This document shows, in pieces, positions 28,348 to 43,278 of a stretch of 43,716 bases of DNA. A model generated the notes under the pieces. That model did no database searches and was not told the DNA's origin. It saw only the letters and a program-made list of their open reading frames with translations. The DNA is taken from positions 1 through 43,716 of the forward strand of contig JAYPKL010000004.1 of NCBI GenBank assembly GCA_038128845.1, in the 5' to 3' direction. Source of the DNA: Candidatus Woesearchaeota archaeon. Lineage in GTDB: Archaea > Nanobdellota > Nanobdellia > UBA10117 > ARS21. The translations under genes were made by a program, and so were the position numbers. Every line of letters begins with the position of its first letter. Position 1 is the first letter of the stretch.

Positions 28348-28914
28348 TTAAATATTTCCCTCTTCATTGTTTTCTTCGATATTCGCAACATTATATTCGG
28401 AATATAATTCGAAATTAGGATAAAATTTAAAGTTAATTATAGAAGAATTAATCAATATATACGATCTAATTAGCTCCTCCTCTCCTTCAAATATTACGTC
28501 GTCACTAGATAAATAGATTTTTGAATCAACTATTTTTAATGGAAATCCGGATACTTTTACTAAGTTTGTTTCATCATCAAATTCAAAAGTATAATCCATA
28601 TTTACACTGTATTCAAAAATTGTAAAATCTTTGTAAAATTTTGGATATTCATTCATTCTTTCTTCAAATTCTAAAACAAAATTAGTTTCAAAATCATTTC
28701 CGGAATAAAATCTAGAGTCATAAGCTGCATAATTTGCTGAATCTTCAACAAAAGTTTGGTAATTTTGTGATATTTCAGTTAATTTTACCAATTCTTTTTG
28801 AGACTTTCCTATCTCAACTGTAAAATTTTGTGGTTCATAAGTTGATATTAAAATTAAACTGAGTACTCCTACTAAACCGATTGAATATAATAATATGATA
28901 ATTCCTTTTTTCAT
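28348..28914 (-). CDS. Pilin-like protein (class III signal peptide)
   Basis: MKKG|IIILLYSIGLVGVLSLILI; last gene of the pilin cluster. Confidence 0.65.
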   Translation of the reverse strand: MKKGIIILLYSIGLVGVLSLILISTYEPQNFTVEIGKSQKELVKLTEISQNYQTFVEDSANYAAYDSRFYSGNDFETNFVLEFEERMNEYPKFYKDFTIFEYSVNMDYTFEFDDETNLVKVSGFPLKIVDSKIYLSSDDVIFEGEEELIRSYILINSSIINFKFYPNFELYSEYNVANIEENNEEGNI

Positions 28915-29387
28915 TATTTATATAACTCCATGTGCAAAAATTTAACACAATCTTCTTCACATACTTTTTTTGATATTGCCAAAGAGCAAGAAATAACTTT
29001 TTCTTTATTTGATAAATCTCCGTGATTTATTGTAGTATATGAATCATCTAACTCGCAGTTTTCTTCAAATGATTCGCAATCTTCACTTATACTGAGTTTG
29101 AAATTTAAATTTAAATTTAACAAATGTTGGTCAATTTTATTTAGATTAGTTAAATCATCATCAGATTCTCCTAAATGTAACGAAGTTTTTTTATCAAATA
29201 TCTTATCTGATTTTAATATATTATTGAGATTATTATAACATTCAAATCCTGAATTAACTGCTATAACATCGGCATTTGATCTAACTTCTCCTTGCTGAGA
29301 AAAATAAATGCTTGATACAAAAATAAACATAATTATCATAACTCCAAAATAAATTTCAATCATACTGGCAACAGAACCTTTACGCAT
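28914..29387 (-). CDS. Pilin-like protein (class III signal peptide), Cys-rich
   Basis: MRKG|SVASMIEIYFGVMIIMFIFV. Confidence 0.7.
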   Translation of the reverse strand: MRKGSVASMIEIYFGVMIIMFIFVSSIYFSQQGEVRSNADVIAVNSGFECYNNLNNILKSDKIFDKKTSLHLGESDDDLTNLNKIDQHLLNLNLNFKLSISEDCESFEENCELDDSYTTINHGDLSNKEKVISCSLAISKKVCEEDCVKFLHMELYK

Positions 29388-29796
29388 TGTAACAAACCTC
29401 TGCAATTAATTCTCTACTACCTCTCAAATATAGAACCATATCAGGAAAATCACATTCTAAAAGACCTTCTGAATAAACCAAGTTATAATTTAAATCAAAA
29501 AAACTTAAACTATATTTTTCTTCATCAAATCCGCTTAGACAATTATTATCTAGATTTTTAAAATCACTTTTATAACCAAAATCGGCTACAGGAAAATCTT
29601 GAATAGTTTTAACATCAGTATAACAATAACTAGTAATTCTTTTTCCTATAATTGTTAAATCCATTTCATCCAATTCATAATTTGCATCAACTTTCAAATT
29701 TACCAAATAACTCTCTACGGAGAAAATTCCAACCATCAAAATTATAACTGCAAAAATTACATAAATAATGGTTTGAAGTTGCATGAATCCTTTCAT
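29380..29796 (-). CDS. Pilin-like protein (class III signal peptide)
   Basis: MKG|FMQLQTIIYVIFAVIILMV. Confidence 0.7.
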   Translation of the reverse strand: MKGFMQLQTIIYVIFAVIILMVGIFSVESYLVNLKVDANYELDEMDLTIIGKRITSYCYTDVKTIQDFPVADFGYKSDFKNLDNNCLSGFDEEKYSLSFFDLNYNLVYSEGLLECDFPDMVLYLRGSRELIAEVCYNA

Positions 29797-32162
29797 AATA
29801 ATTTATTAATCTCCGTTATTAATATACCATTATGTTCTTTTTTACTTATTTCTATTACAAGAGGATTTTCAATATAATAATTATTATCTGAGTCTATCAT
29901 ACCCGCAGATTTAGATATATATGGGAAAAATGATTTAGAATCAACAGGATTAGTCAAAAATGCCGTGGTTAAACCAATTGCAGCCGGACCTGCAAATGCT
30001 GCTAAAACTCCTCCTGAAAAGTAAGCGCTAAATGAGCCCGAAATTTGTGGATCTGCCCAAGATCCTAAATATAGAATTCCCCATCCGAAAGTACAACCTG
30101 GTCCGAATGATGCTTTAATTGCAGTAACTGATCCGCAAGCTACAAAAGGTATTGTTGCAACCATTTCTCTTGGATTAATAATAGTATCTTGTAATACTTT
30201 CGGAGTTGCATCTTTAGATAATAAATTATTATGTGAATCAACACAATTGTTGTCTGAATTAATTATATTTGGATATTCTTTTGATTTTAAAATTGGTGAA
30301 CTGGATGGCATTGCAAATATGCCTTCTGCTATGTCTCCAAAAATTTTTATTTCTCCTATAAAACTATTGTCAAAATCAGGATAATTCAGTACCGATTCAG
30401 ATTCGCAATTTGGTTTTGATACATAGTAAGTTTTATTTTCCGATTTACAAGAAATTGTTGAAAATGAATTTTCAACAGCTTCTGTAGCTTTTTGAGACTT
30501 ATTAATAAAATAAACTATTGGAAGATATGTTAAACCGTACTCTAAAGCATAACTTATCCAAGACATACCTTTAACTGATAATATACAAACCGGTGCAAAT
30601 ATCGCTAACCCGCTACAAGCCGGTTCTGCAACCTCTGTTGTTGCTTTAACCGCCAATGATCTAACTGCGGACTTTCCGATTCGTTCTGATGTTTGTTTTG
30701 CTGCACTGTTATATAATTTATTTAAACCTGTTACTTTACCCATAAATTTTATTCTTTTTTTAGCTCGTTCTGCAGATTCAATTGCTGCTGTTTTAACAAA
30801 ACTAGCACCTTTTTTGAATGGTGACGTTATATAATTTAAACTAGATCCGGTACGTTTCAAAAATCCTTTTTTTGCAATTTGTTTTTCGGCAAGTAAAGGT
30901 GCTTTTTCTAATGCCTTGCTTAGTTTATACGCTCTATATTTTTTAACTCCAGGTATTTTGGATTTCAAATCATTTCTACCCGATCTTTCAATTGCATCCA
31001 GTGTAGAATCATCAAGACTTGCATATAACTTGTCTAATTCATCAAAAAAATTTGGACTTATATCTGGATTAATTTTATCAAAAGCCTGTCTATAATTATC
31101 ATGTGCATCTGCTAATGCTTTTTCAACAACATCGTCTCCTAATGATTTTGCTTCATTTAATTCTGCAATAGCGCTTCCAGCTTTATTATTGGCATTTGAT
31201 ATTTGAAAATCTCTTTCTTGAATAATATCGTTTCGAATTTTAGTACGTTCATCTGATAAAAATTCTTCTGAGGGAGTTCTAGTGATTTGTGTATTTCCTG
31301 TTTTACTCTTTTTATTTTTATATCCTCCTGGCGGATTCTTACTTGGATTTATTCTTTCATCAAAATAAAAATCAAATCGATCTTTATATTTTCCAGTTAT
31401 TTCTCCTGTATCTATATCAATCTTTCCAATAAGTTCTTCATCAGATAATTCGGCTAAGGCTTTAGATTCATCACTCCATTGTCTTGTTGCAGAACTTATT
31501 TCTTCTTGTTTAGTTAGCTCTATATCTGTTGCTTGCTGAATATATTGTTCATCAACATATTCTCCGTATAATTTTGCAGAATTTAAGTCGTCCTCTAATT
31601 TTTGCTCAAGAATTGCTTTATTTACTTCATCTAAATTATAACCTGCTTCTTCAAATTGTTTTCTTAGAATCTTTTCTCTATATTGATCTTCTCTCCAATT
31701 TTGGAGTTCTCTAGTCGTAAGATCTTGACCTGCATCAGATGCAATTCTTGCTAATTTTGCAGTACTAGTTCGATCTTTATTGTATTGATATAAACTATAA
31801 TAAAGCAATCCTTCCTCGATAGGAATATTATCCCATGCTGCGTTTAGAATTAAATTTGACATATAATCTTGAGGATATTTACTCAGAGTATATTCACATT
31901 CTACTGGGTTAAAAAGAACCGTACCATAACCAGGGTTGCCTAAAAAATCTGTAGGAATTTCATGATATACGGATATAGGTACTGATGACGAGTCAACGAA
32001 ATCTGTTGTAATTGCAAGAGTTTTTGCAGCAATAGTTGGATCTCCTAAAACCGAAGTTTCTACAGCATCATAAAAAACATTAACTGAAGCAATAGTAGTT
32101 AGTGAAGCAATTAAAACTATTCCAATTTGAAGAATTAAATCTCCGGATATACCTTTCTTCAT
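29793..32162 (-). CDS. Giant pilin-like protein (~789 aa) with helical region and hydrophobic hairpins
   Basis: MKKG|ISGDLILQIGIVLIASL; ATGA overlaps with both neighbours. Confidence 0.7.
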   Translation of the reverse strand: MKKGISGDLILQIGIVLIASLTTIASVNVFYDAVETSVLGDPTIAAKTLAITTDFVDSSSVPISVYHEIPTDFLGNPGYGTVLFNPVECEYTLSKYPQDYMSNLILNAAWDNIPIEEGLLYYSLYQYNKDRTSTAKLARIASDAGQDLTTRELQNWREDQYREKILRKQFEEAGYNLDEVNKAILEQKLEDDLNSAKLYGEYVDEQYIQQATDIELTKQEEISSATRQWSDESKALAELSDEELIGKIDIDTGEITGKYKDRFDFYFDERINPSKNPPGGYKNKKSKTGNTQITRTPSEEFLSDERTKIRNDIIQERDFQISNANNKAGSAIAELNEAKSLGDDVVEKALADAHDNYRQAFDKINPDISPNFFDELDKLYASLDDSTLDAIERSGRNDLKSKIPGVKKYRAYKLSKALEKAPLLAEKQIAKKGFLKRTGSSLNYITSPFKKGASFVKTAAIESAERAKKRIKFMGKVTGLNKLYNSAAKQTSERIGKSAVRSLAVKATTEVAEPACSGLAIFAPVCILSVKGMSWISYALEYGLTYLPIVYFINKSQKATEAVENSFSTISCKSENKTYYVSKPNCESESVLNYPDFDNSFIGEIKIFGDIAEGIFAMPSSSPILKSKEYPNIINSDNNCVDSHNNLLSKDATPKVLQDTIINPREMVATIPFVACGSVTAIKASFGPGCTFGWGILYLGSWADPQISGSFSAYFSGGVLAAFAGPAAIGLTTAFLTNPVDSKSFFPYISKSAGMIDSDNNYYIENPLVIEISKKEHNGILITEINKLL

Positions 32163-32644
32163 CCAAATATTGCCTCTCCTATTGAACATCCGCTTGCAAT
32201 CCCGTATTGATAAGGCATTTTAGATAGAATAATTGTTCCTCCGTCATTACACACACATGCCCTTGTATCAATTTTTCTTGTAAAATCTATATTTAGAGGA
32301 AATTCATTATTTATAGAATTGAAAAAATCATTATCACTTATTCGTACTGATTTCTTCATTGAAACTGAAGTTACTGGATCAGATTTACCTTCTTCAATTA
32401 AAGATAATTTACCAGAAATATGCTCCATTCTGAATCCTTCTTTTATTAAAAAATTAAAATCTGCACACTTATCTTTGCTCAATGAATCCGAAAATGCTGC
32501 AAGGTCTCTTATTGTAAAAATTGATTCATCATCGTTTTCAATTAAACCGCCAAATAAATTTGATAATAAAAATCCGCCTATCAATACTACCATTCCTGCT
32601 ATAACCAACTCAATAATAGAATATGCAGTAATACTTCCTTTCAT
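32159..32644 (-). CDS. Pilin-like protein (class III signal peptide)
   Basis: MKG|SITAYSIIELVIAGMVVLIGG; 4 Cys. Confidence 0.72.
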   Translation of the reverse strand: MKGSITAYSIIELVIAGMVVLIGGFLLSNLFGGLIENDDESIFTIRDLAAFSDSLSKDKCADFNFLIKEGFRMEHISGKLSLIEEGKSDPVTSVSMKKSVRISDNDFFNSINNEFPLNIDFTRKIDTRACVCNDGGTIILSKMPYQYGIASGCSIGEAIFG

Positions 32645-32811
32645 TATAACAAACTTTGATCAATTAAAGCAGTAACTGGTTCTTCAATTTCATTAAACGA
32701 ACCAGATAAAGCAGTCCATTTAGAAGTTATAAATATAAGAACTAAAACTAATATAGAAACTGCGATTATCATTACAATTATTGTTTCGATTGATAAAGCA
32801 CCTCTCCTCAT
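32644..32811 (-). CDS. 55-aa mini-pilin (not in ORF track)
   Basis: MRRG|ALSIETIIVMIIAVSILVLVLIFITSKWTALSGSFNEIEEPVTALIDQSLL*; E at +5; TAATG overlap with next gene. Confidence 0.82.
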   Translation of the reverse strand: MRRGALSIETIIVMIIAVSILVLVLIFITSKWTALSGSFNEIEEPVTALIDQSLL

Positions 32812-32851
32812 AGTGAATTAAATAATTATATTATAAAAAGTTAATTTAGGA

Positions 32852-34234
32852 TTATAAAATACTGGAACTTTCGCAAATATTTGTTAATGCCTCAAATACG
32901 CCTGAATCTAATGTTTGTCTATCTACTGAACTTATTGTTGAAAAAATAGGGCATGATCCTCCAGTTGAATCTCTTGATAGTCTTGATCCCGCATTATTTA
33001 ATTCGTCAGATATAGAAATATGTTTTTTATTTCCGCAAGAATACATAGGTATTAATCCAGAAGAAACTGAAGATAAACCGTCACAATAATTTATTTGAAA
33101 TGCAGAACTAGGGTTTATTGGTTCATCATTAAATAAAACTAATTTATTTTCCATATCTGGATCATTTAATCTAAATATATCAGAAAAAGACAAATAATCA
33201 TTATACATTTTAACATCAGAAACGCGTTTTATATCTTCAGAATATATTCTTTCATCAAAATTATTTTCCAGTTGTAAAGTTAATTCAAATCGATCATAAT
33301 TATCACAATTTTGATTAATTAGTGAATTACAATAATTTGTAAAAATAATATCATTTTTTTCTTCTTTGACTTTAATTAATTTTTCATTTGAATTATGAAT
33401 TGATTGAAAATTTGATTTTATCTCGGAAACATCACAATCTGAAATTGAATTATTTATTATAGAATTCAATAAGCCATAATTATTATTATTAGTTAAATCA
33501 TTATACATTTTTTCATATAATTCTGAATCAAAAATAACACTACTTTCGGTTACTTGTAATAAATTTTGATTTTCAAACTCTGCGTCTATATTTGAACAAC
33601 TCTTCAATTTATCTATATTTAAATTTCTTGAAGATTGAATTATTGAATTATATATTGAACTTATTTGTGCACTTACAAATGAATCTCTTTGAAGAGCTTT
33701 ACAATTTGAATTTGAATTTTCAGAATCACAGTTAAAATAATTTTCTAATCTGATTCGAATAATTTCATTAGGATCTTTATTTTCAACAGAACCTATCGAT
33801 ACTGTAAAACAAGCCCAATTATATCCATTAATAAATCCTTCTGAATTCATTTTCCAACATTTTCTTGATAGATCTAAAATTTCATCAACAATACAATTTT
33901 TTTGTTGATCATAGGGATTTATATTTATAACATTTTGATCACAATCTAATTTATTTGGATCAATAATTATTTTTTGTGTTGGACATGATTTTAAAAATTC
34001 AAAGGGATTTATTTGTTGAGGTAATAAGTTTATAATATCATCTTGTATACCTTGGTCTTTTGTTTCTAAAGAAACGGCATTTATTTTTGCAGTACATAAT
34101 TTTTCATTAACTTCACTAACTTCAACAGAGTCCGTAAATTGATTATAAACACCTATAGAAACTATTAAACCTAATATTGACAACAAAATTCCTACAATAA
34201 AATAAGTAGATTGTCCTTTTATATTAAATACCAT
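32852..34234 (-). CDS. Large Cys-rich pilin-like protein
   Basis: IKG|QSTYFIVGILLSILGLIV; many Cys including NCIVDEILDLSRKCW. Confidence 0.72.
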   Translation of the reverse strand: MVFNIKGQSTYFIVGILLSILGLIVSIGVYNQFTDSVEVSEVNEKLCTAKINAVSLETKDQGIQDDIINLLPQQINPFEFLKSCPTQKIIIDPNKLDCDQNVININPYDQQKNCIVDEILDLSRKCWKMNSEGFINGYNWACFTVSIGSVENKDPNEIIRIRLENYFNCDSENSNSNCKALQRDSFVSAQISSIYNSIIQSSRNLNIDKLKSCSNIDAEFENQNLLQVTESSVIFDSELYEKMYNDLTNNNNYGLLNSIINNSISDCDVSEIKSNFQSIHNSNEKLIKVKEEKNDIIFTNYCNSLINQNCDNYDRFELTLQLENNFDERIYSEDIKRVSDVKMYNDYLSFSDIFRLNDPDMENKLVLFNDEPINPSSAFQINYCDGLSSVSSGLIPMYSCGNKKHISISDELNNAGSRLSRDSTGGSCPIFSTISSVDRQTLDSGVFEALTNICESSSIL

Positions 34235-34788
34235 ATTAATGTCATTATTAAACCTCCTAAAATAAATAATATTAAATAAAAAATTCTAGAAAGTCCAAGA
34301 TAGTTGCTATAATTTTTAATAATAGAATATGAAAATACTATAATTATTAAATAAAATAGAATGAATCCTATATAAATTAAAAAATTAAAGCCGCTGCTGA
34401 GTAATAAAAATGAAAACAAAAATAGATTAAAATAAAATATATATGGATAAATTAATGAATAAAACATTTTAATATCTGAATTTGAACCGAATAATTTTGA
34501 AAAAATTACCAAAATAAACGATAAAAAATTTATAAAAATAAAATAAAAAATAAATACTGAAATTAAAAATAAAAAATAAGAACTAAAAATTGTTAAAGAA
34601 TTTATATTTGTATTGATCAAGGAACCTATTTCTTGTGAATAATTAGAATTAATTATTCTTGATGAATTTAATGAATAAATTATTAATAAAAACGAAAATA
34701 AAAATAAATTTTGTATTAGGTATGTAAAATTATTATTATAATAATTTGATAGTCCTAAAGAATATTTTATATTTCCAATAAAGCTCAT
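34219..34788 (-). CDS. Multi-pass membrane protein, Yip1-like
   Basis: About 5 TM segments; FSKLFGSNSD resembles the Yip1 KLFGG loop. Confidence 0.55.
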   Translation of the reverse strand: MSFIGNIKYSLGLSNYYNNNFTYLIQNLFLFSFLLIIYSLNSSRIINSNYSQEIGSLINTNINSLTIFSSYFLFLISVFIFYFIFINFLSFILVIFSKLFGSNSDIKMFYSLIYPYIFYFNLFLFSFLLLSSGFNFLIYIGFILFYLIIIVFSYSIIKNYSNYLGLSRIFYLILFILGGLIMTLIWYLI

Positions 34789-34814
34789 ATTAATAATTAA
34801 ATTATTTATATATA

Positions 34815-34973
34815 TTAATTTCCTAAATTATCGGTACTTGATTTTAATAAATCAGTTGCAATATTTGTAACAGATCCGTCTGATCCTATTTTTGAAATCA
34901 TAAAAACAATTAATAAAACTGCAACAGTTATTCCAATAATGAATAAAATTATTTGATTTATTCCTAATTCCAT
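34815..34973 (-). CDS. 52-aa mini-pilin without leader peptide (not in ORF track)
   Basis: MELGINQIILFIIGITVAVLLIVFMISKIGSDGSVTNIATDLLKSSTDNLGN*; TAATG-coupled to upstream gene. Confidence 0.72.
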   Translation of the reverse strand: MELGINQIILFIIGITVAVLLIVFMISKIGSDGSVTNIATDLLKSSTDNLGN

Positions 34974-35116
34974 TATATTTTAACTGCGGAGCCTAATTCT
35001 TTAGCTATATTCATCATATCTCCTCTGGTGTTTGCAATAAATATTACCATCAAAACTAAAAATGTTATTGCAATTAAAAAAGCTATTACTTGCCAATTAA
35101 GTTGTCCTTTTAACAT
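34973..35116 (-). CDS. 47-aa mini-pilin (not in ORF track)
   Basis: MLKG|QLNWQVIAFLIAITFLVLMVIFIANTRGDMMNIAKELGSAVKI*. Confidence 0.8.
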   Translation of the reverse strand: MLKGQLNWQVIAFLIAITFLVLMVIFIANTRGDMMNIAKELGSAVKI

Positions 35117-36123
35117 TGTCCCCTCCTCTCATAATAAATATAATTTTCTGATAGTTTGGCATTACCAAATTCAAATTCTCCTAAGATTGCACCTGCGGCA
35201 TATAATGGTTGATTTCCTTTTAAAACCGAGATCGTTTTTACTCCTGCTTCCAAAAGATTTATATCTGTTGATTCAACAAATCCTAAAATTATTTGATCTC
35301 CGGAATTATAATTTATATTTGGATCAAATAAAATATTATCATAAGGTCCCAATTCGTTTACTGATGAATAAAGATTTATCATTTCAGATAAACTATTTGA
35401 ATTTAATTCTAGATCAACTATATTAACTAGATAAAAATCTTTATCTTGAATACCTACTGCTTTTTCGTAACTTATTTTTATTAATTCGCCTTCATTTTTT
35501 GGAGTTATCTTAATTCCTATTTCTTCCGGATCATATAAATTTCCAATATCTTGAAATTTCAATGTGTATTGGTTTACGGGTGTATCTGAAATTTTAACAT
35601 CTAACTCATTTGTGTTTGGTACATAAATTTCACCAACAGGTTTATCTAACTTATATGATCTGAATCCATTTGATAGACAAATTCTATTACATTCGCCGCT
35701 GAATTTTGCATTTCCTTTAAGATATGTATTCCAGCAAGAATTTGATCTGTCAATTAATGCATAACTTAAGCATAAATTTCCAAAATTTTGATCATTTTTG
35801 GCCAACTCATAATTTCCTTGATAATATTCAATTAGTCCTTTACACATATCGAACATTCGATTAGTATTTGTAATGTCCGGAGGTCTCAATGTTTCAGAAA
35901 CTACTTTACAATTGCTATTTCCAATATCTAGAGCTTGTTCAACAATATCATCTCCGGTATACATATTTTGAAATGCATTTCTTAATGTACATGCACTATT
36001 ACCTTGATTGTTTAATATTCCGTAAGATATTTCAGAATAAACTAATATTGAAACGAATCCCGCTATAAGTATTAATAAAATACTTACAATATAAAACTGA
36101 ACTGCACCTCTATTTGAGAGCAT
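35110..36123 (-). CDS. Large Cys-rich pilin-like protein
   Basis: MLSNRG|AVQFYIVSILLILIAGFV; LCLSYALIDRSNSCW motif paralogous to 32852..34234. Confidence 0.72.
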   Translation of the reverse strand: MLSNRGAVQFYIVSILLILIAGFVSILVYSEISYGILNNQGNSACTLRNAFQNMYTGDDIVEQALDIGNSNCKVVSETLRPPDITNTNRMFDMCKGLIEYYQGNYELAKNDQNFGNLCLSYALIDRSNSCWNTYLKGNAKFSGECNRICLSNGFRSYKLDKPVGEIYVPNTNELDVKISDTPVNQYTLKFQDIGNLYDPEEIGIKITPKNEGELIKISYEKAVGIQDKDFYLVNIVDLELNSNSLSEMINLYSSVNELGPYDNILFDPNINYNSGDQIILGFVESTDINLLEAGVKTISVLKGNQPLYAAGAILGEFEFGNAKLSENYIYYERRGQC

Positions 36124-36211
36124 TATTAACAATAACAAGCATTATTCCTACTGCAACAAGGGATAATATTAGCATTATTATATAAGAATAAGTTGAATTT
36201 TGACCTCTCAT
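36110..36211 (-). CDS. 33-aa micro-pilin (not in ORF track)
   Basis: MRG|QNSTYSYIIMLILSLVAVGIMLVIVNNALK*; TATA-like TTTAAATA about 20 nt upstream. Confidence 0.7.
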   Translation of the reverse strand: MRGQNSTYSYIIMLILSLVAVGIMLVIVNNALK

Positions 36212-36255
36212 AGTTATTAAATCAAAAATTTTATTTAAATTAATCTATATACTTT

Positions 36256-36501
36256 TTAAGAACACTCGCCATAGACTTCCAAACAAGCATCTTCATTAAA
36301 TAAATCTAAATTTCCAACGGATTTAGCATTATTACAAGAAAGTAAACAAGATGCATAATTTGTATTTGTTGAATCTTGAAGTTCTGAAACTTCTTCAGAT
36401 AATCCGGAAAATCGACCAGAAAAGAATAATAACATTCCTACTAAAACAGATAATGCGATAATAAGTGCAATTATTGTATTGATACTAATTTGTCCTTTCA
36501 T
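36256..36501 (-). CDS. Pilin-like protein
   Basis: MKG|QISINTIIALIIALSVLVGMLLFF; C...C..AK and terminal Cys pair. Confidence 0.82.
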   Translation of the reverse strand: MKGQISINTIIALIIALSVLVGMLLFFSGRFSGLSEEVSELQDSTNTNYASCLLSCNNAKSVGNLDLFNEDACLEVYGECS

Positions 36502-36502
36502 A

Positions 36503-36871
36503 TTATATACCGCAATCAGTTTCTCCGTCAAAATAAACTAATGAACCTGAATCGGATCTTCCTGATCCGCTACATGATACGGATATTGGACTTTCATAAC
36601 AATTTAACTCTTCACCGTCAACAATAAATTTTTTTGAACAATATGATGAAGTTGGAAATGAATCAATTCCGGAATTTGATACTGAAGCTTTAGCAGTATT
36701 ACAAAGATTATTACAATTTGATTTGTATGTGTCAATTTTATCAGGGCTAGATTCGGACACTGATGAAAATAAGTTACCTAGTCCTCCGGTAGTAAATCCA
36801 ACTATTATAATTAAAGCTGAAAGAGCAATAATTAAACCAACAATAGTGTTTGTACTAATTTGTCCTTTCAT
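36503..36871 (-). CDS. Pilin-like protein (candidate major pilin)
   Basis: MKG|QISTNTIVGLIIALSALIIIVGFTTGG; C...C..AK, 6 Cys; first after the platform gene. Confidence 0.82.
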   Translation of the reverse strand: MKGQISTNTIVGLIIALSALIIIVGFTTGGLGNLFSSVSESSPDKIDTYKSNCNNLCNTAKASVSNSGIDSFPTSSYCSKKFIVDGEELNCYESPISVSCSGSGRSDSGSLVYFDGETDCGI

Positions 36872-36901
36872 ATATATAATGTTAAATCTTATTTATATGT
36901 T

Positions 36902-38902
36902 TTATGCCAAAACTCCGGTGACTACTCCCGCCATTTGGGAAAATATAAAAGTTCCAATAAATGCAAGACCGCAATATAATAATGTGGCAATAATTATATT
37001 TTTTGAAAACATATTTTCAAAATCTAATTTACTTGATCCGTTTATAATTCCAGATACTAAATTTGTCAATAAATATATTGCTTGAATTATATAAATTCCA
37101 ATCATTAATTGTAAAATAAATGGTGGTACGGCGACATCTACTTGAAATATATTTGTAATTCCAGTTCCAATACCTTGACTTTCTATATCTCCGGCGTTAA
37201 AACCTTCTAATTGATTACTCAAATTAAGTAGAACTTTGGTTACTAATACGGAAAGGCTTACTACAAGTGCAGACATTACTGGTGCTAAAAAAGATATTTG
37301 CATTTTCATACTCGATAGAGAGTCTGATAAAAGATCAAACATTCTTTCTTTAAGTTGATGCATTTTTTGAAGATATAAAGAAAGTGTTGTCATAGAATCT
37401 GCAGTAATTTGAGAACCTTTTTTTGAAGATTCTATTAAGATTTTCATAACAGATTCTATTAAAGGTGAAGGATATTTAGTTAACGCACCAATTTCATTAT
37501 TAAAAATTGAATCTTCTAAATTCATTCCTCTTTTTCTTATGTTATCATCAATAATTGTGAAAAAATTATTAACTTCAGAACCTTTTGTATTCTCAACCAT
37601 TTTTGAAAAAGCTGCCTCAGTAGGAATATTTTGACTAATTAGATTACCTAATTGAAAAATTGCAGAAGAAAATTCATCTTCAATTTTTTCTAAAGATTTT
37701 TTTGAATTTATTAAGTTCTTTGTTTTATAATTATAATAGACAAAAAAAGAAATACCTATTGAAAATATTATTAATAGAGATATATAAAAAACACTATTTT
37801 CAAATTTATAAAATCCCCAATTATCAGAACCTGCAAACCATAATAAAATTAACGTTGCAGGTATTGCAATAACTGAAAATAATAAACCTGAAACTAATTT
37901 CAGTCTTCCAGTATGCATATTTCTTTTATCTAAAATAGATGTTGAAACGCCTCCTGGACGAGTATTCAATATTTTTTTAGAAATTAAAAATACAATGACT
38001 GGTAAAAATAAATTATAGGTAAAAATTAAAGGAATTGGTTTGATTGTATCTGCTAAGAATGCAGACACCATTGGCATCATTATCAGCATTAAAAGAGGCA
38101 TTACTATACCTAACATATTAACTGTTTGTATGGGAGATTGTAAATTATGTGCATAATGAGTAAGATTATCTTGAACTCCGGTTGTAATAACTTCAGTGGA
38201 TTTTTCTAAAATTTTTTTTGCTTTATTTGAATCTGATTCTTGTAAACTTGATTGAATTAGATGTATAGATTCAACAAAAGCAGGTTCTGAATCTTTCCAA
38301 GTTTCAATATAATAATTTAAAGAATCATCAATTGTTTGATATTTTCCCGTTTCAACATCCCATAATATTTTAATAAAATCAATAGAAAGCGGAGCAGGTA
38401 TTTGATTTGCAACAAATAAAATTGCTCTTTCTAAATTTGAATCTCGCTTCATATATATTACAATATATAAAACTGCAATTAGTAATTGGTCTGAAGCCTT
38501 AGCTCTCCAACTTTCAAAAATTAATTTAGGCATATTTGAAAGATAATAAATTAAAAATAATGATGTAGCAATACTTGCAAAACCAAAAAAATATTGTCCT
38601 AAAAAAATAAGCGGAATTGCTAATATGAAAAAAGGAATGGCAGAAAGAATTGCCAAAGACATAACTCCATTCGGATCAATGTTTAAATGAGCTAGTTGAA
38701 TGTATTTTTGAAGATTTGGTAAATCTTTTTCTGAAGGTTTTAATTTTAATATTTTGGAACTAAAATTTACAAATTTTTCATATCTACCCGATAAAACTTT
38801 TTTATTTTCTTGTAAAAATGTTTGATACTCTTTTGAATATGAAATATTTTTTTTTGAAGGATTATTAACTTTATTTAATCTTTCTTCGAATTCATTAGCC
38901 AT
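36902..38902 (-). CDS. Type IV pilus/T2SS membrane platform protein (TadC/FlaJ-like, duplicated domain)
   Basis: Two cytoplasmic domains (YMK...NLERAI; E.EFSSA.FQLGN...PTE.A) alternating with TM bundles; follows the ATPase. Confidence 0.85.
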   Translation of the reverse strand: MANEFEERLNKVNNPSKKNISYSKEYQTFLQENKKVLSGRYEKFVNFSSKILKLKPSEKDLPNLQKYIQLAHLNIDPNGVMSLAILSAIPFFILAIPLIFLGQYFFGFASIATSLFLIYYLSNMPKLIFESWRAKASDQLLIAVLYIVIYMKRDSNLERAILFVANQIPAPLSIDFIKILWDVETGKYQTIDDSLNYYIETWKDSEPAFVESIHLIQSSLQESDSNKAKKILEKSTEVITTGVQDNLTHYAHNLQSPIQTVNMLGIVMPLLMLIMMPMVSAFLADTIKPIPLIFTYNLFLPVIVFLISKKILNTRPGGVSTSILDKRNMHTGRLKLVSGLLFSVIAIPATLILLWFAGSDNWGFYKFENSVFYISLLIIFSIGISFFVYYNYKTKNLINSKKSLEKIEDEFSSAIFQLGNLISQNIPTEAAFSKMVENTKGSEVNNFFTIIDDNIRKRGMNLEDSIFNNEIGALTKYPSPLIESVMKILIESSKKGSQITADSMTTLSLYLQKMHQLKERMFDLLSDSLSSMKMQISFLAPVMSALVVSLSVLVTKVLLNLSNQLEGFNAGDIESQGIGTGITNIFQVDVAVPPFILQLMIGIYIIQAIYLLTNLVSGIINGSSKLDFENMFSKNIIIATLLYCGLAFIGTFIFSQMAGVVTGVLA

Positions 38903-41136
38903 TTATTTAACCAATCCTCCCATTCGGAATAAATTTTATCTGGATCTGTTTTTTGATATCGATCATATACTTCTTTACTTATTTTATGAAACATATCATT
39001 ACAAAGAATAGTAAATTCAGCTTCCAATAAAGATTCATTATTCTCTGAAATTTCTACGATTTTACTTTTTATTTTAGATCTCAACAAAATATTATTATAA
39101 ACTGCATCCCAATCGCCTGCCCATTCTGGAATCTTTGATGCAATATTTTTTAGAACTTCAGATTCTCCTTGAATTAATGCGTCCGTTGGTTCTAATTCAT
39201 CAGTTTCAGGATTATAAATCATTAAATCTAAAAAGCCATTTTCTTTTAATGGATCGTCAGTCCATTCTTTTTTAACTTCAGCAATTTGAACAATACGCTT
39301 TTTTCTGTCAAGACCCGATGCGGTTTTTACTGGATTTGCAACAACTATTATATCTGTAGCTTTAAATGAAGTTTTTGGAACATTTAAATCATTCACAACT
39401 CTATCAAAAATAGAATAAGGAGAATCTCCGTGAATTGTTCCCATAACAACATTTGCTAATGCACCAACTCTCATTGCCTCATATAATGCTGTGGCTTCTT
39501 TGCTCCTAACTTCTCCAACTATTAATGCTGAATCTCCCAGTCTTAATGCTGCTCGAATACCATCTTCTGCAGTTAGTTCTGCAGATCCTTGTGATAAAAC
39601 CGATTGAACTTTCATGGATTGTATATCATAATTTAATCTCTGATAACTTCTTATGGGTAATTCTAATGTATCTTCTATTGTAAGAATTCTTGTTGATCTC
39701 ATTAATTCAACTAATGATGAACTTAGAAAAGAAGTTTTACCTGAAGATCTTGTACCTGCAATAAGAATTGTTCTTGCTCCGTCAATTAAAAAACTAAGTA
39801 AACCTGCTGCAAGCGGATTTATCATTTTATTTTTTATAAATAGAGGATAAGTCCAAGGTTTTTCTCTATGTCTTCTAAATGAAAATGCCATACCGTCTGG
39901 GCTAATTGGTTGCTGAATGGCTGCAACTCTTGCAGTAGAATTTGGTAAAATTAAATTAGTATCTAAAACTGGATTTGCTTCGTCCAAAGGTCTACCGGAT
40001 ATTAACCTTAGTTTTGTGGCAATTGCTTCAGTTTCTTTCTGAGTTAGAGTAATATTAGTTCTACATTCTCCGTATTTTTGATGAACTATAGAAATCTCAT
40101 TAATATTAGATGGTGCATTTATAGAAATATCTTGAATATTATCATCCATTAAAATAACTTCAATAAGTCCGAAACCCAAAGTATATCTTACTAAAATCTC
40201 TGCAAGTTGATCAACTTCATCTTTAGTTAATTTAATTCCTTTAGATATACTTAAATCGTTAATTAAATCTTTTTCTACATTTTTGAATAATTCTCTGGTT
40301 TTTTCAGGATCAATAAATTCTGATTTTTGAGGTTTGTGTTCAGAAACTACTTGCTTTGCTTCTCCTAGAAGTAAATATTTATCTTCAGATAAACTCATTT
40401 CGGGAGGAACTATATGGTAAATTGGCCGAATACTTTCCTTTAAATCTAGAATTGATACTTTTGTTTTATCATTTAATGAATAAGATTCTAATATAACTGA
40501 ATCTGAGGGAATTTTGGTAATTAATTTTGCATATAAAAAATTTGGTTTAATGACTGGGCTAAAAATTCTTGAATAAATTTTCCTGTCATTGGGTTTATGT
40601 TCAGAAAAATAAGGCTGTGCCAATCTGATTAAATCTGTTTTTTCTAAAGAATTTTTTATATAATTTAATGTTTGTAAAAATGCTTGTCTTGATTTCGGAT
40701 TTTGTCGATTTGAAGTTTGTCCGAGTTTTAATTCTTCATCAATTTTTGATAAAAGTCTTAAATATACGCCTATTGGTTCTTCTCTTAAACCAAAATTTAC
40801 TATTGACTTTAAAAATTCAATACGATCTGGATACGGTTCTTCATCAGATATATCTCTTACAGAAGATTCAGAAAAAATTTTTTTATTCTCCAAATCCATT
40901 ATTATTGAAGCAATCTCAATAAGTATATTTGTTTGATCATATGGATAAATTACATCTTCTTGCTGCAAAAATTGTATTTGGTTTACTCTGCCTGATTTTG
41001 TAAGTTTATCTATTGTATCTGCCATAACTGAAGAATTATTTTCAATAGTTGGTGACTTTACGCTTTTTGAATAGTCTACTTCAAGAATTCTTTGTCCGGG
41101 TTTTTCTATAATTCTATATGGGTTATTTGAATCCAT
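38875..41136 (-). CDS. Type II/IV secretion system ATPase (TadA/FlaI/VirB11 family)
   Basis: Walker A GTRSSGKTS, TIEDTLEL Asp box, LRLGDSALIVGEVR, GTIHG; likely start MDSNN at 41136. Confidence 0.93.
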   Translation of the reverse strand: MDSNNPYRIIEKPGQRILEVDYSKSVKSPTIENNSSVMADTIDKLTKSGRVNQIQFLQQEDVIYPYDQTNILIEIASIIMDLENKKIFSESSVRDISDEEPYPDRIEFLKSIVNFGLREEPIGVYLRLLSKIDEELKLGQTSNRQNPKSRQAFLQTLNYIKNSLEKTDLIRLAQPYFSEHKPNDRKIYSRIFSPVIKPNFLYAKLITKIPSDSVILESYSLNDKTKVSILDLKESIRPIYHIVPPEMSLSEDKYLLLGEAKQVVSEHKPQKSEFIDPEKTRELFKNVEKDLINDLSISKGIKLTKDEVDQLAEILVRYTLGFGLIEVILMDDNIQDISINAPSNINEISIVHQKYGECRTNITLTQKETEAIATKLRLISGRPLDEANPVLDTNLILPNSTARVAAIQQPISPDGMAFSFRRHREKPWTYPLFIKNKMINPLAAGLLSFLIDGARTILIAGTRSSGKTSFLSSSLVELMRSTRILTIEDTLELPIRSYQRLNYDIQSMKVQSVLSQGSAELTAEDGIRAALRLGDSALIVGEVRSKEATALYEAMRVGALANVVMGTIHGDSPYSIFDRVVNDLNVPKTSFKATDIIVVANPVKTASGLDRKKRIVQIAEVKKEWTDDPLKENGFLDLMIYNPETDELEPTDALIQGESEVLKNIASKIPEWAGDWDAVYNNILLRSKIKSKIVEISENNESLLEAEFTILCNDMFHKISKEVYDRYQKTDPDKIYSEWEDWLNKWLMNSKKD

Positions 41137-41169
41137 ATTATTAAATAGAATAGATAGTTTATATATCAT

Positions 41170-41484
41170 ATGGCAGATTTACCTGAGACAAATATCATGG
41201 CAGAATTATCAAAAATAAATAGGCGACTTACGCTTATTGAAAATAGATTTTCAAATCTCAGTGATCAAGTAAATTTAATAGAAAATTCACTTAATGAAAA
41301 ACATGAAGCTTCTGGAAAAAATGTATCAAATATGGATCTCTCGTTAAAAGAATTAAAAGACAGAGTAAATAATTTTGAATTGGAAATAAAAAAATTTAAT
41401 GGAATAATTTCAAACTTTGCTTCAAAACAAGATGTAAAAATACTGGAAAGATATATAAATTTCTGGAACCCAATTAAAGAATAA
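41170..41484 (+). CDS. Coiled-coil protein with C-terminal ERYINFWNP motif
   Basis: Heptad pattern; divergent from the ATPase; coupled to next gene by TAATG. Confidence 0.75.
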   Translation: MADLPETNIMAELSKINRRLTLIENRFSNLSDQVNLIENSLNEKHEASGKNVSNMDLSLKELKDRVNNFELEIKKFNGIISNFASKQDVKILERYINFWNPIKE

Positions 41485-42041
41485 TGGCCTTATTTGATAA
41501 AAAAGATAAAGAAAATAATTTACCTTTGCCTCCGCCATATAATCCCAACTCAATGAATAATCCTATGCAAAATCAAAATATGAATAATATGCCACAACCA
41601 AATAATTTTCAAAATAGTTCTCCAGGAAATCCTTTTGATAAACTTCCTCCTTTAAATCAGACAAATTTATCTCAATTACCTGAGGTGAATAACACTAATC
41701 AAAAAGATCATACTGAATTAATGACTGAGGATATAGAAAAAATAACTGAATCCATAATCGGCGAAAAATGGGATAAAATAAATACTGAATTAAAAAATAT
41801 GACTGATTGGAAAAATGAATTAACCAAACAATTAGATTCTTATAAGAAAAAAGTTGAAGATTTAGAAAATAAACTATCTGAAACTCAAACTGCAATGATT
41901 GGAAAGGTTGATGAATATAATAAATCGATAGGTAATGTCAATATAGAAATTCAAGCAATGGGTAAAGTATTTGAAAAATTAATACCTGAATTTACTTCAA
42001 ATGTTAAAGAATTATCTGAAATTGTAAAAAAACATAAATAA
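41484..42041 (+). CDS. Pro/Asn-rich N-terminus + coiled-coil protein
   Basis: LPLPPPYNP low-complexity region; IE.I.ESII.EKW; AM.KVFEKLIP.F..NVKEL. Confidence 0.78.
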   Translation: MALFDKKDKENNLPLPPPYNPNSMNNPMQNQNMNNMPQPNNFQNSSPGNPFDKLPPLNQTNLSQLPEVNNTNQKDHTELMTEDIEKITESIIGEKWDKINTELKNMTDWKNELTKQLDSYKKKVEDLENKLSETQTAMIGKVDEYNKSIGNVNIEIQAMGKVFEKLIPEFTSNVKELSEIVKKHK

Positions 42042-42044
42042 TTT

Positions 42045-42650
42045 TTATTTTCCTGGCCTTCCGATTAACAAAGTTGCTCCAGTAAATATAAGTAATAATA
42101 CTATAACTGATAATATAGATGGATCATATATTGTTGCCAATCCTCTTGAAACTGGGTCTGAGCTAGGTGAGAACTCTGAAAGTAAATCTCCTTCTTGCAA
42201 ATCTGTAGAAGATCCTTTAGATACGGCAATTCCGTCTGCTTCAGTGGCTTGCTGAACAGTAGGTATTGCTGAAACAATAGCAATAATCAGTATAATTATC
42301 ATTACAACAAAAATAGCAGTATAAGATTCAGATTGTTTAGCTGCCGAAGCTATATCTTCTGTTTTAAGACCTAAGAAACTAAATATTAGCAATAATAATA
42401 TAATAACTGAAAATAATAATGTGGAACCTATTAATAAAATTCGAAATAAACTTACAATAGATGAAAAACTAATTAATGTAACTGAAATTGACAGAGCAAT
42501 CAATGCATTTATTGTTTTATTATCTCCTAATAATTCTTGACTAGATAAAACACCATATGTTCCTGCAAAGAATAAAATAAACGGAAATACAACATCAAAG
42601 AAACCTAAGTCTCTCATAACATCAATTCCAGAATTTAAGGTTACGGCCAT
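42045..42650 (-). CDS. Multi-pass membrane protein (GF.DV..PF.L.F family)
   Basis: LGFFDVVFPFILFFAGTYGVL, INALIALSI; about 5 TM. Confidence 0.78.
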   Translation of the reverse strand: MAVTLNSGIDVMRDLGFFDVVFPFILFFAGTYGVLSSQELLGDNKTINALIALSISVTLISFSSIVSLFRILLIGSTLLFSVIILLLLIFSFLGLKTEDIASAAKQSESYTAIFVVMIIILIIAIVSAIPTVQQATEADGIAVSKGSSTDLQEGDLLSEFSPSSDPVSRGLATIYDPSILSVIVLLLIFTGATLLIGRPGK

Positions 42651-42690: not shown

Positions 42691-43278
42691 CTATTCATCT
42701 TTTTTTGGTGAAGTTGATGCAGATTTACCTAAAATATAAATTACTGCAAGTGGGAAACCCAACACTAATGCCAAAGAAAGAATAGTCTCAAATCCTTCTC
42801 CTGAACTTGCAGCTGAAGCTCCAACCAAGAACTCAGATAATGGACGTATGAACGGTATTCCTGAGGGAACTCCCATATCAATTACTAATAAAAATACTAA
42901 AACTATTGTTAAATAAAATAAGTTTTTACCAAAAGTAATATTATCTCCGAACATAGGATTTCCAATAGGGTTCTTCAATCCTAATAAACCTAATACCATC
43001 ATAATTAATAAAACTATAACCAGCAAGAAACCTGCCTGAGGTATAACTCCCGCAATATAGTTAACGGCATCAGTTGACGTTATGAAAAATGCACCGATAG
43101 CAAGAGAAATTATTTGATTTACTGTTTTTGATGAGTCATCATTACCGAATAATTCTACTTTTTGCAATAGTCCGAAAACTAATGCATACAACAATACAAA
43201 TGGTAAAATAACTGTAAAAAATCCAAAGTCTTGCAATAATACTACTGCATTTTCTAAAGGATTAACTATTTGTACCAT
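42691..43278 (-). CDS. Multi-pass membrane protein, paralog of 42045..42650
   Basis: FGFFTVILPFVLLYALVFGLL, VNQIISLAI; about 5 TM. Confidence 0.78.
   Translation of the reverse strand: MVQIVNPLENAVVLLQDFGFFTVILPFVLLYALVFGLLQKVELFGNDDSSKTVNQIISLAIGAFFITSTDAVNYIAGVIPQAGFLLVIVLLIMMVLGLLGLKNPIGNPMFGDNITFGKNLFYLTIVLVFLLVIDMGVPSGIPFIRPLSEFLVGASAASSGEGFETILSLALVLGFPLAVIYILGKSASTSPKKDE

Follow-up and report, generated by a model that had tools for sequence, protein, structure and literature searches.

What kind of machine is encoded by a packed run of 16 genes in a woesearchaeal genome of 457 kb, and what does the cell use it for? Woesearchaeota and Pacearchaeota are abundant and uncultivated, and their mode of cell contact is the wider question to which this locus belongs. 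The window analyzed here is the whole 43.7-kb contig C4 of that genome (10 contigs, an estimated 90% complete, about 27% G+C), and the run occupies its minus strand from position 41169 down to 28348. An original prediction, made from this DNA alone, had assigned it to the DPANN archaea (named after Diapherotrites, Parvarchaeota, Aenigmarchaeota, Nanoarchaeota, plus Nanohaloarchaeota); the genome size of 0.46 Mb and the titles of its relatives (Woesearchaeota, Pacearchaeota, or Nanoarchaeota) agree with that origin. Judging from its gene content, the locus very probably encodes a type IV filament machine. The best explanation of the whole, which we consider reasonably probable, is a machine of the archaeal/Tad branch that corresponds to the "locus 2" type of cluster-2 DPANN.

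The gene content supports the type IV pilus-like apparatus that had been predicted, with a PF00437 ATPase, a TadC-like platform protein, class III-type N-termini, and, elsewhere in the genome, an A24 peptidase. The run starts with the ATPase gene, continues with the platform gene, and then holds 14 more open reading frames (ORFs), 13 of them pilin-like and one, mem189, coding for a membrane protein (Table 1). The ORF map bears out the co-oriented and largely overlapping arrangement that had been described, including the membrane gene inside the run. Nine of the 15 internal junctions overlap with one set of starts, and 10 do so after the use of ATG starts read by hand (p342 at 36123, p163 at 29387) and of an ortholog-supported start of p798 at 32162; the platform gene overlaps the ATPase gene by 28 nt, and the widest intergenic gap within the run is 44 nt. 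After the platform gene, ORF sizes go from 33 to 798 amino acids (aa), p798 having 789 aa from its likely start, which matches the range of 33 to about 790 aa expected beforehand. The ATPase ORF (38875-41169) encodes 764 aa, but we favor M12, at 41136, as the likely start, because the orthologs align from residue 8-18, and this gives a protein of 753 aa. Next downstream, 24 nt past p188, lies the gene of the ribosomal protein uL16 (PF00252, E 5.6e-28).

Twelve of the 13 pilin-like ORFs pass a FlaFind-like rule (a [KR][GA] pair no later than residue 35 and, after it, a stretch of 20 residues of which 11 or more are strongly hydrophobic and no more than one is charged), cleavage itself being predicted from sequence. 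This agrees with the claim that twelve ORFs begin with a short basic leader ending in K/R-G plus a hydrophobic helix, i.e., the class III signal pattern. The remaining one, p52 (MELG/I, the slash marking the cleavage position here and below), has the hydrophobic helix and fails the rule, with no basic residue at -2. Genome-wide, 38 out of 2455 ORFs of at least 30 aa satisfy the class III rule: 12 are found in the locus (42 ORFs in its span) and nine in another pilus locus, that of contig C1, while the remaining 17, mostly short, belong to neither locus. The probability of such clustering in the locus is very low (hypergeometric P = 2e-13). Across five genomes of the same family, the motif is retained in 65 of the 68 orthologs of the 12 families, while neither p52 (0/6) nor the membrane ORF mem189 (0/6) carries it. 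At position +1, Gln is found in five of the 12 class III-type ORFs, and Ala, Ser, Ile, or Phe in the others.

The ATPase matches PF00437 with 61.9 bits (E 5.4e-17, cut-off 24.9) and has a Walker A motif, GTRSSGKT, at residue 472 and a Walker B motif, LIVGE, at residue 549. Its nearest matches in the PDB are afGspE (2OAP, 1.1e-34), CpaF (4.4e-25), and FlaI (2.4e-20). FlaI is also its best NCBIfam match by score, at 143.8 bits versus a cut-off of 550; since the ATPase of the C1 locus reaches 408 bits on the same model, the one studied here is the more divergent of the two pilus ATPases of the genome. Some relatives have an ATPase frame about 500 aa longer (G013:C12:894-4673), and frames of 1255-1801 aa are found in around ten genomes. 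In G013, the ATPase match breaks in two near residue 500 while the frame runs on without a stop, and these longer frames look like the result of an intein in the ATPase core.

As for the platform, the protein has at least eight hydrophobic segments, with two soluble stretches of about 140 aa between the transmembrane groups. Its match to T2SSF (E 0.0058, 17 bits) is under the cut-off of 25.2, four out of 17 platform orthologs match this family (best E 4.8e-5), and the platform profile found nothing in the PDB under E 0.68. The duplicated domain attributed to it is unproven. Sequence provides no proof of an internal duplication, as the comparison of the whole protein with its C-terminal half gives a BLASTP E of 0.086 and the profiles of both halves (63 sequences) align with an hhalign probability of 0.4%; the layout of the protein does fit, and so does a relative (L083) in which two ORFs, one of 420 and one of 241 aa, take the place of the single gene. 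The platform gene is encoded on the strand opposite the ATPase in L081, L046, L041, L069, L097, L037, and L035 and, further, in L070, L085, L076, L073, L063, and L055. This arrangement, seen in about a dozen related loci, means that co-transcription of the ATPase and the platform is not universal.

A genome lacking a prepilin peptidase had been named as one of the findings that would speak against a pilus, and an A24 prepilin peptidase is encoded on contig C1 (G000:C1:99373-100146, minus strand). It is a protein of 257 aa that matches PF01478 with 32-33 bits (cut-off 26.5), with a GGGD motif, read by eye, and about six hydrophobic segments according to a crude hydropathy profile. Because homologs of this peptidase (279-292 aa), co-oriented with the other genes, terminate the pilin run in 12 related loci, we consider it tied to the system of the locus. 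In order-level loci, an extremely Lys/Arg-rich ORF of 39-49 aa separates the last pilin gene from that of the peptidase (L079:19788-19919, L086:19144-19263, L088:19494-19643, L044:18676-18816, L059:10954-11082); this ORF is absent from the window.

Similar loci had been expected in other DPANN genomes, and the ATPase was found at full length in all 41 relatives (43-91% identity). Its N-terminal 300 residues are present in 394 out of 401 genomes, drawn evenly from the phylum and all listed under one class, and in 277 of the 281 genera of that class. Six unpublished genomes are among them (G281, G282, G357, G368, G395, and G431), the exclusion of which leaves 388/395. The retention of the machine in a 0.46-Mb genome and its occurrence in 394 of the 401 genomes make it probable that it answers a core need. 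Synteny is also conserved: all 16 genes appear in the same order in five genomes of the family (G001, G003, G005, G007, and G008), the small ORFs of 33, 47, 52, and 55 aa among them, and uL16 follows the locus in same-family genomes too (the contig of G003 ends inside p798). Relative to the family orthologs, the ATPase is 65-73% identical, the platform 54-64%, and the subunits 23-63%. We also fetched 80 public loci, titled Woesearchaeota, Pacearchaeota, Nanoarchaeota, or similar (a few labels are evidently mis-binned). The ATPase was recognizable in 80/80 and the platform in 60/80, with most subunits beyond the reach of phmmer; of the 43 loci that extend 7 kb or more downstream, most still contain a run of class III-type ORFs.

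The sole subunit family that can be traced across order and class is p122. All 20 members of the family alignment, which spans both ranks, have Gln at +1 and the same four Cys. The profile of the family retrieved, out of 1.84 billion, 2651 cluster representatives with E<=1e-3, a number that falls to 688 with E<=1e-10. No Pfam family was consistently matched across 83 p122-family members, and against PDB sequences the profile aligned with transmembrane helices only. An AlphaFold 2 (AF2) model built with the family alignment (mean predicted local distance difference test [pLDDT] of 85.5) predicts a helix at residues 7-27, a Gly-rich break, a second helix at 43-67, and four short strands, a layout that is, in the model, the general one of a pilin. 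Many family members have a DxDGDG-like loop after the third Cys, which is shortened in the p122 of the window; EF-hand_5 was matched by 2 of the 83 members and another EF-hand family once, and the loop suggests a calcium site.

Profile-profile comparisons across the order extended the tracing to a few more subunits. The paralog p91 is linked to the order-wide w123 group (hhalign 93%, motif kept 6/6), and so is p122; p52 is linked to w55 (77%), p47 to w50 (61%), and p138 weakly to w175, with no others. Order-wide, p52 has a conserved N-terminus, M(A/S)ELTINQLIK. Single-sequence phmmer searches with p342, p460, p161, p798, p138, p163, and p188 reach the closest loci only, and among 5.8 billion proteins we detected 15 homologs of p798 and six of p460. 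The layout of p798 comprises a pilin-like N-terminus, a small beta domain, a long coiled coil, and a Cys-bearing C-terminal domain. Residues 1-135 and 525-798 are conserved, with a variable charged middle. Two of its helices (186-247 and 308-373) were modeled confidently (pLDDT 86-94), which indicates a coiled coil, as far as the model goes. Neither a Foldseek search of the overall poor model against the PDB (no match at E<=0.001) nor the sequence profile (coiled-coil noise only, best E 0.032) added to this picture.

The membrane protein mem189 occupies the same position in five loci of the family (23-30% identity). In five order-level loci, a pilin-like ORF is found at that position and mem189 was not seen there, so that mem189 is specific to the family of genomes around the source genome. 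Its proposed likeness to Yip1 had to be abandoned, given that PF04893 matched nothing in the genome at E<=10 (the control matched in 11 out of 14 genomes) and that mem189 has no Pfam match at E<=0.1.

The loci of relatives yielded 64 class III-like ORFs with a length of 190 aa or more, of which 58 have no family at all; one contains Amidase_2, one MopE plus CARDB, and one Mucin2_WxxW. The first of them, L066:16711-17904 (+), lies in the pilin run and matches Amidase_2 (N-acetylmuramoyl-L-alanine amidase) with E 3.3e-21, a hint that in this relative the protein may act on the walls of bacteria; the window has no comparable ORF.

Two compositional features characterize the subunits. First, the eight that contain Cys do so in even counts (6, 4, 8, 16, 4, 8, 4, and 6), and seven of them exceed the 95th percentile of Cys content in the genome (2.2%), with the ATPase at 0.26% and the platform at 0.15%. 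Second, N-glycosylation sequons (N-x-S/T) are avoided. In the ectodomains of the 13 pilin-like ORFs (28348-36871), we counted 4 sequons versus 28.1 expected from the composition of each ectodomain (Poisson P ~1e-7), and in the orthologous loci the numbers seen and expected are 6/16.4, 7/16.5, 1/18.6, 1/19.5, and 0/18.3. Controls are not depleted (ATPase, 5 versus 5.7; platform, 5 versus 6.0; 350 long ORFs of the genome, ratio of 0.93). Depletion extends to order-level loci (n=5; 12 versus 31.6) and to the p122 family (25 versus 84.9). The genome carries an AglB/STT3 gene, and the avoidance may be read as exposure to the oligosaccharyltransferase together with selection against glycosylation. 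As far as sequences can tell, the even Cys counts, the sequon avoidance, and the faster evolution of the subunits are signs that these are extracellular.

A second pilus locus on contig C1 (G000:C1:42378-57426, L118) serves as the nearest comparison. It encodes a canonical ATPase of 559 aa, two platform genes (T2SSF 1e-13), and, next to a thermosome gene (Cpn60_TCP1, 3.5e-177), three Arch_flagellin-type pilins, together with six further class III-type ORFs, one of them a 906-aa protein with cadherin and Big_9 domains that is likely an adhesin subunit. Both loci share an ATPase, a platform, subunits with class III signals, and probably the same peptidase, and the C1 locus resembles the Aap/PilA type. 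However, the C1 locus differs from that of the window in its canonical ATPase, its two platforms, its Arch_flagellin pilins (PF01917 was matched in the C1 locus only, and PF07790 weakly and only on contig C1), and its sequons, which are at expectation (59 seen versus 52.9). Even, high Cys counts and the avoidance of glycosylation sites are two testable marks of the locus with respect to that of C1.

How does the locus relate to what has been described? In the accessible parts of their article, Hamm et al. 2024 (PMC11291902) describe, for cluster-2 DPANN including Woese- and Pacearchaeota, two type IV pilus-like loci that are conserved and hold CpaF, TadC, and coiled-coil proteins, with FlaF, PilA, and GroEL in locus 1 as well, and proteins of these loci were detected by proteomics in Nanohaloarchaeum antarcticus. 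The C1 locus, with its thermosome, Arch_flagellin-type pilins, and two platform genes, is similar to their locus 1. The locus of the window fits their locus 2, which it resembles in gene content: a CpaF-like ATPase plus TadC and adjoining coiled-coil genes (cc104 and cc185 here), which may be the published "CCP" genes, a match that we regard as a candidate one. In those parts of the article, CpaF and TadC are the filament proteins named for locus 2; the 12-gene class III run, the peptidase at the end of the run in relatives, the Gln at +1, and the sequon avoidance are unmentioned there. The statement that no functional description of this architecture was known needs to be corrected in that similar loci are in print, although it still applies to Woese- and Pacearchaeota, for which our literature searches retrieved no functional study. 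The picture of DPANN archaea carrying type IV pilus-like loci is unchanged, and what is added here is the upstream module, the p122 family, the Cys pattern, and the sequon avoidance.

A census that covers these genomes (Sivabalasarma & Albers 2026, PMC13705601) indicates, in the sections available, that ordered loci are rare in DPANN, with pilins scattered. In its rows for relatives, this locus type appears as an arCOG01818 ATPase plus an arCOG01814 platform only; the pilin run thus seems to escape arCOG-based detection. An arCOG02300 protein is listed near the platform gene of the relative PBZO01. The system 1 of the same census, for which arCOG01817 is listed with arCOG01811 and arCOG01812, includes the Epd pilus of Methanococcus maripaludis (clade 1), which is similar to our locus in having many pilin-like genes in one operon, a very divergent ATPase, and small pilins without a globular domain. 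Gln at +1, reported as essential for processing by EppA in the accessible text of PMC4390842, is shared with the p122 family (20/20). On the other hand, the platform is one fused gene of 666 aa here and is split in two genes, as in Epd, in L083 only; the arCOGs of the relatives (arCOG01818/arCOG01814) are not those of Epd (arCOG01817/01811/01812) in the census rows available, and the peptidase has 257 aa and about six hydrophobic segments versus the 9-transmembrane EppA type. PF04021, the Class_IIIsignal family of the short Epd pilins, was unmatched in the locus at E<=10, with one weak match elsewhere in the genome.

Bacterial Tad/Flp pili are the other point of reference, with the similarity to CpaF (E 4.4e-25), the Flp-sized subunits of 33-55 aa, and the lack of a retraction ATPase in the locus as common traits. 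Differences are the archaeal single-membrane setting, with no secretin or outer membrane parts, the many large subunits, and the cleavage site: the Flp motif is G/xxxxEY, whereas the leader ends in [KR]G here.

If the reading as a type IV filament machine is right, twelve precursors would lose their short basic leader through a cut after Gly/Ala made by the A24 peptidase of C1, and a hexamer of the ATPase docked on the TadC-like platform would lift the processed subunits by their N-terminal helices and stack them into a filament. The most likely main subunit would be p122, with its paralog p91, although we would give p122 itself only an even chance of holding that role. The Flp-sized p33, p47, and p55 could be core or initiating subunits, and the larger, disulfide-rich p342, p460, p161, p798, p138, p163, and p188 might be low-copy subunits that display binding domains, the C-terminal domain of p798 being carried on a coiled-coil stalk. 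The filament would then contact a host cell or a surface, a purpose that we put forward tentatively, at somewhat less than even odds. Shown here are the genes themselves, how well they are conserved, their class III motif, the presence of a peptidase, and traits pointing to subunits outside the cell. We infer the assembly of a filament, the roles of the individual subunits, and the target, and this applies equally to what the original prediction proposed, namely, that the filament is a composite one ending in a tip complex and that it works in host contact or delivery.

Several observations weigh against this interpretation. None of the 14 proteins downstream of the platform exceeds a curated cut-off in Pfam or NCBIfam, and the platform itself is only weakly T2SSF. 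The p122 model gave no significant Foldseek match (best E 2.9), and in a wide VIA-align search the best Z was 4.1, with solved pilins at Z 2.8-3.1, tied with unrelated folds. The AF2 model of p798 is poor overall (mean pLDDT of 56.6), and the moderately hydrophobic segments near its C-terminus are odd for a filament subunit. EpdE and other studied archaeal pilins are N-glycosylated, according to the accessible text of PMC4390842, while the subunits of the locus avoid sequons. Adhesion may belong to the C1 locus instead, because cadherin and Big_9 are found there and not in the locus at 28348-41136. Our literature searches retrieved no demonstration of a filament, of processing, or of binding for this locus type in Woese- or Pacearchaeota. 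Finally, support at the RNA level is weak, as it consists of contigs of one library only, the salt-marsh metatranscriptome X20, which cover p122, p91/p33, p342, the p161/p798 start, the platform, and uL16; such a library can hold DNA, its contigs cannot rank genes, and uncovered parts prove nothing.

Some of these features could also be explained by a display system similar to a bindosome, in which the ATPase and the platform order class III-signal proteins as a short stalk or a surface layer, the large Cys-rich proteins being anchored binding proteins, with no long filament. Binding proteins with class III signals have been proposed to functionalize type IV filament machines (Sivabalasarma & Albers 2026, PMC13705601, in the sections available), seven of the subunits are large (138-798 aa) and mutually unlike, and the C-terminal hydrophobic segments of p798, as well as the domains found once each among the large class III-like ORFs of relatives (Amidase_2, MopE+CARDB, Mucin2_WxxW), point in the same direction. 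However, no substrate-binding-protein family was matched by any of the 13 subunits in Pfam or NCBIfam, a small pilin family with a pilin-like model (p122) is conserved, and the four Flp-sized subunits suit the core of a filament. We consider such a display system unlikely.

In Com and type II secretion systems, a main pilin is accompanied by several minor ones. The locus could resemble them in this, and a pseudopilus acting as a short piston in DNA uptake or protein secretion would make sense in a tiny genome that probably has to obtain its building blocks by scavenging; a compact, buried piston would also be compatible with disulfides and with the avoidance of sequons. Nevertheless, no ComEC (PF03772) was detected at E<=1 in this 90%-complete genome, there is no recognizable secretin or other channel partner, and the locus contains no nuclease or DNA-binding family of Pfam or NCBIfam, all of which makes a pseudopilus improbable. 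An archaellum, suggested by FlaI being the best NCBIfam match by score of the ATPase, or a functionless degenerate remnant can be practically discarded, the former given the 143.8 bits versus a cut-off of 550, the confinement of Arch_flagellin (PF01917) to the C1 locus, and the lack of archaellum ArlH/F/G genes in the run by a Pfam scan of the locus, and the latter given 16 intact, overlapping genes, syntenic in 5 genomes, and an ATPase that is near-universal in the class.

Returning to the type IV filament machine, one speculative and rather unlikely extension is a division of labor between the two loci of the genome. The C1 locus would provide a general adhesin, with glycosylated PilA-type pilins and the cadherin subunit, and the locus at 28348-41136 a glycan-free, disulfide-cross-linked, short and rigid device for contact or penetration. 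Were this true, the device would have about ten distinct subunits plus a coiled-coil fiber (p798 or the cc proteins), its task would be to engage the host envelope or to breach it, the dependent lifestyle of the class as a whole would rest on it, and it would be marked by sequon avoidance, which is kept both across genera and within the p122 family. In practical terms, the parts list with refined starts, the candidate p122, and the two compositional marks can guide proteomics, antibody, and electron cryotomography work on enrichments.

Upstream of the ATPase gene, there is a group of four genes outside the originally delimited run, two of them coding for coiled-coil proteins and two for paralogous membrane proteins (Table 1). 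Their conservation was counted over 61 related loci with at least 2.5 kb of upstream sequence. Homologs of cc104 appear in 28/61 loci, 25 of them within 3.5 kb of the ATPase start and all 28 on the opposite strand, and homologs of cc185 in 45/61, with 42 within 3.5 kb upstream and 44 of the 45 on the opposite strand. Even more frequent are u201 and u195, each present in 52/61 loci and, in 48, within 3.5 kb upstream of the ATPase. It seems probable from this distribution that the four of them are part of the machine.

Table 1. Genes of the filament locus and of the adjoining upstream module in the window, with the basis of each assignment (a slash marks the cleavage position)
Feature	Coordinates	Strand	Basis
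Secretion/assembly ATPase, 753 aa from M12, ~300-aa lineage-specific N-terminal domain	38875..41136	-	PF00437
TadC/PilC-like platform membrane protein, 666 aa	36902..38902	-	weak T2SSF, hydrophobic segments
p122, MKG/Q, pilin-like, candidate major pilin	36503..36871	-	family profile, AF2 model
p91 (81 aa from ATG), MKG/Q, p122 paralog	36256..36501	-	phmmer cross-matches with p122 orthologs
p33, MRG/Q, mature part a single hydrophobic helix	36110..36211	-	conserved in 6/6 family genomes, 36-61% identity; motif kept 6/6
p342 (337 aa from ATG; ORF start TTG 36138), SNRG/A, 8 Cys	35110..36123	-	motif kept 6/6
p47, MLKG/Q, Flp-sized, pilin-like	34973..35116	-	motif kept 6/6
p52, small single-helix protein without class III cleavage motif (MELG/I)	34815..34973	-	0/6 pass rule
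mem189, polytopic membrane protein without known family	34219..34788	-	~5 hydrophobic segments
p460, IKG/Q, 16 Cys	32852..34234	-	sequons 1 observed vs 8.3 expected
p55, MRRG/A with Glu at +5, Flp-sized, pilin-like	32644..32811	-	motif kept 5/5
p161, MKG/S, 4 Cys	32159..32644	-	motif kept 4/6
p798 (789 aa from MKKG/I; ORF start 32189), coiled coil, Cys-bearing C-terminal domain	29793..32162	-	AF2
p138, MKG/F, 4 Cys	29380..29796	-	motif kept 5/5
p163 (157 aa from ATG; ORF start TTG 29405), MRKG/S, 6 Cys	28914..29387	-	motif kept 5/5
p188, MKKG/I, no Cys, last gene of run	28348..28914	-	motif kept 5/5
cc104, divergent coiled-coil protein	41170..41484	+	weak Sec3_CC match, 2.8e-4
cc185, coiled-coil protein, N/P/Q-rich N-terminus, candidate "CCP"	41484..42041	+	weak Filament and CC149 matches
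u201 and u195, paralogous polytopic membrane proteins	42045-42650, 42691-43278	-	no Pfam match

Another gene of the window (4963-6582, minus strand) codes for a 539-aa ATPase that also matches PF00437. We rejected this third match to the secretion ATPase family as a pilus component, since it corresponds to PINA, a PIN-domain ATPase of Holliday-junction branch migration (NF010335, E 6e-201) that is unrelated to the pilus.

With regard to habitat, near-identical DNA was found in estuary metagenomes, from which the genome may itself derive, and, across several studies, in salt-marsh metagenomes, with small shares in marine runs. At 90% likeness, a salt-marsh run covered 30/30 bins and a marine run 29/30.

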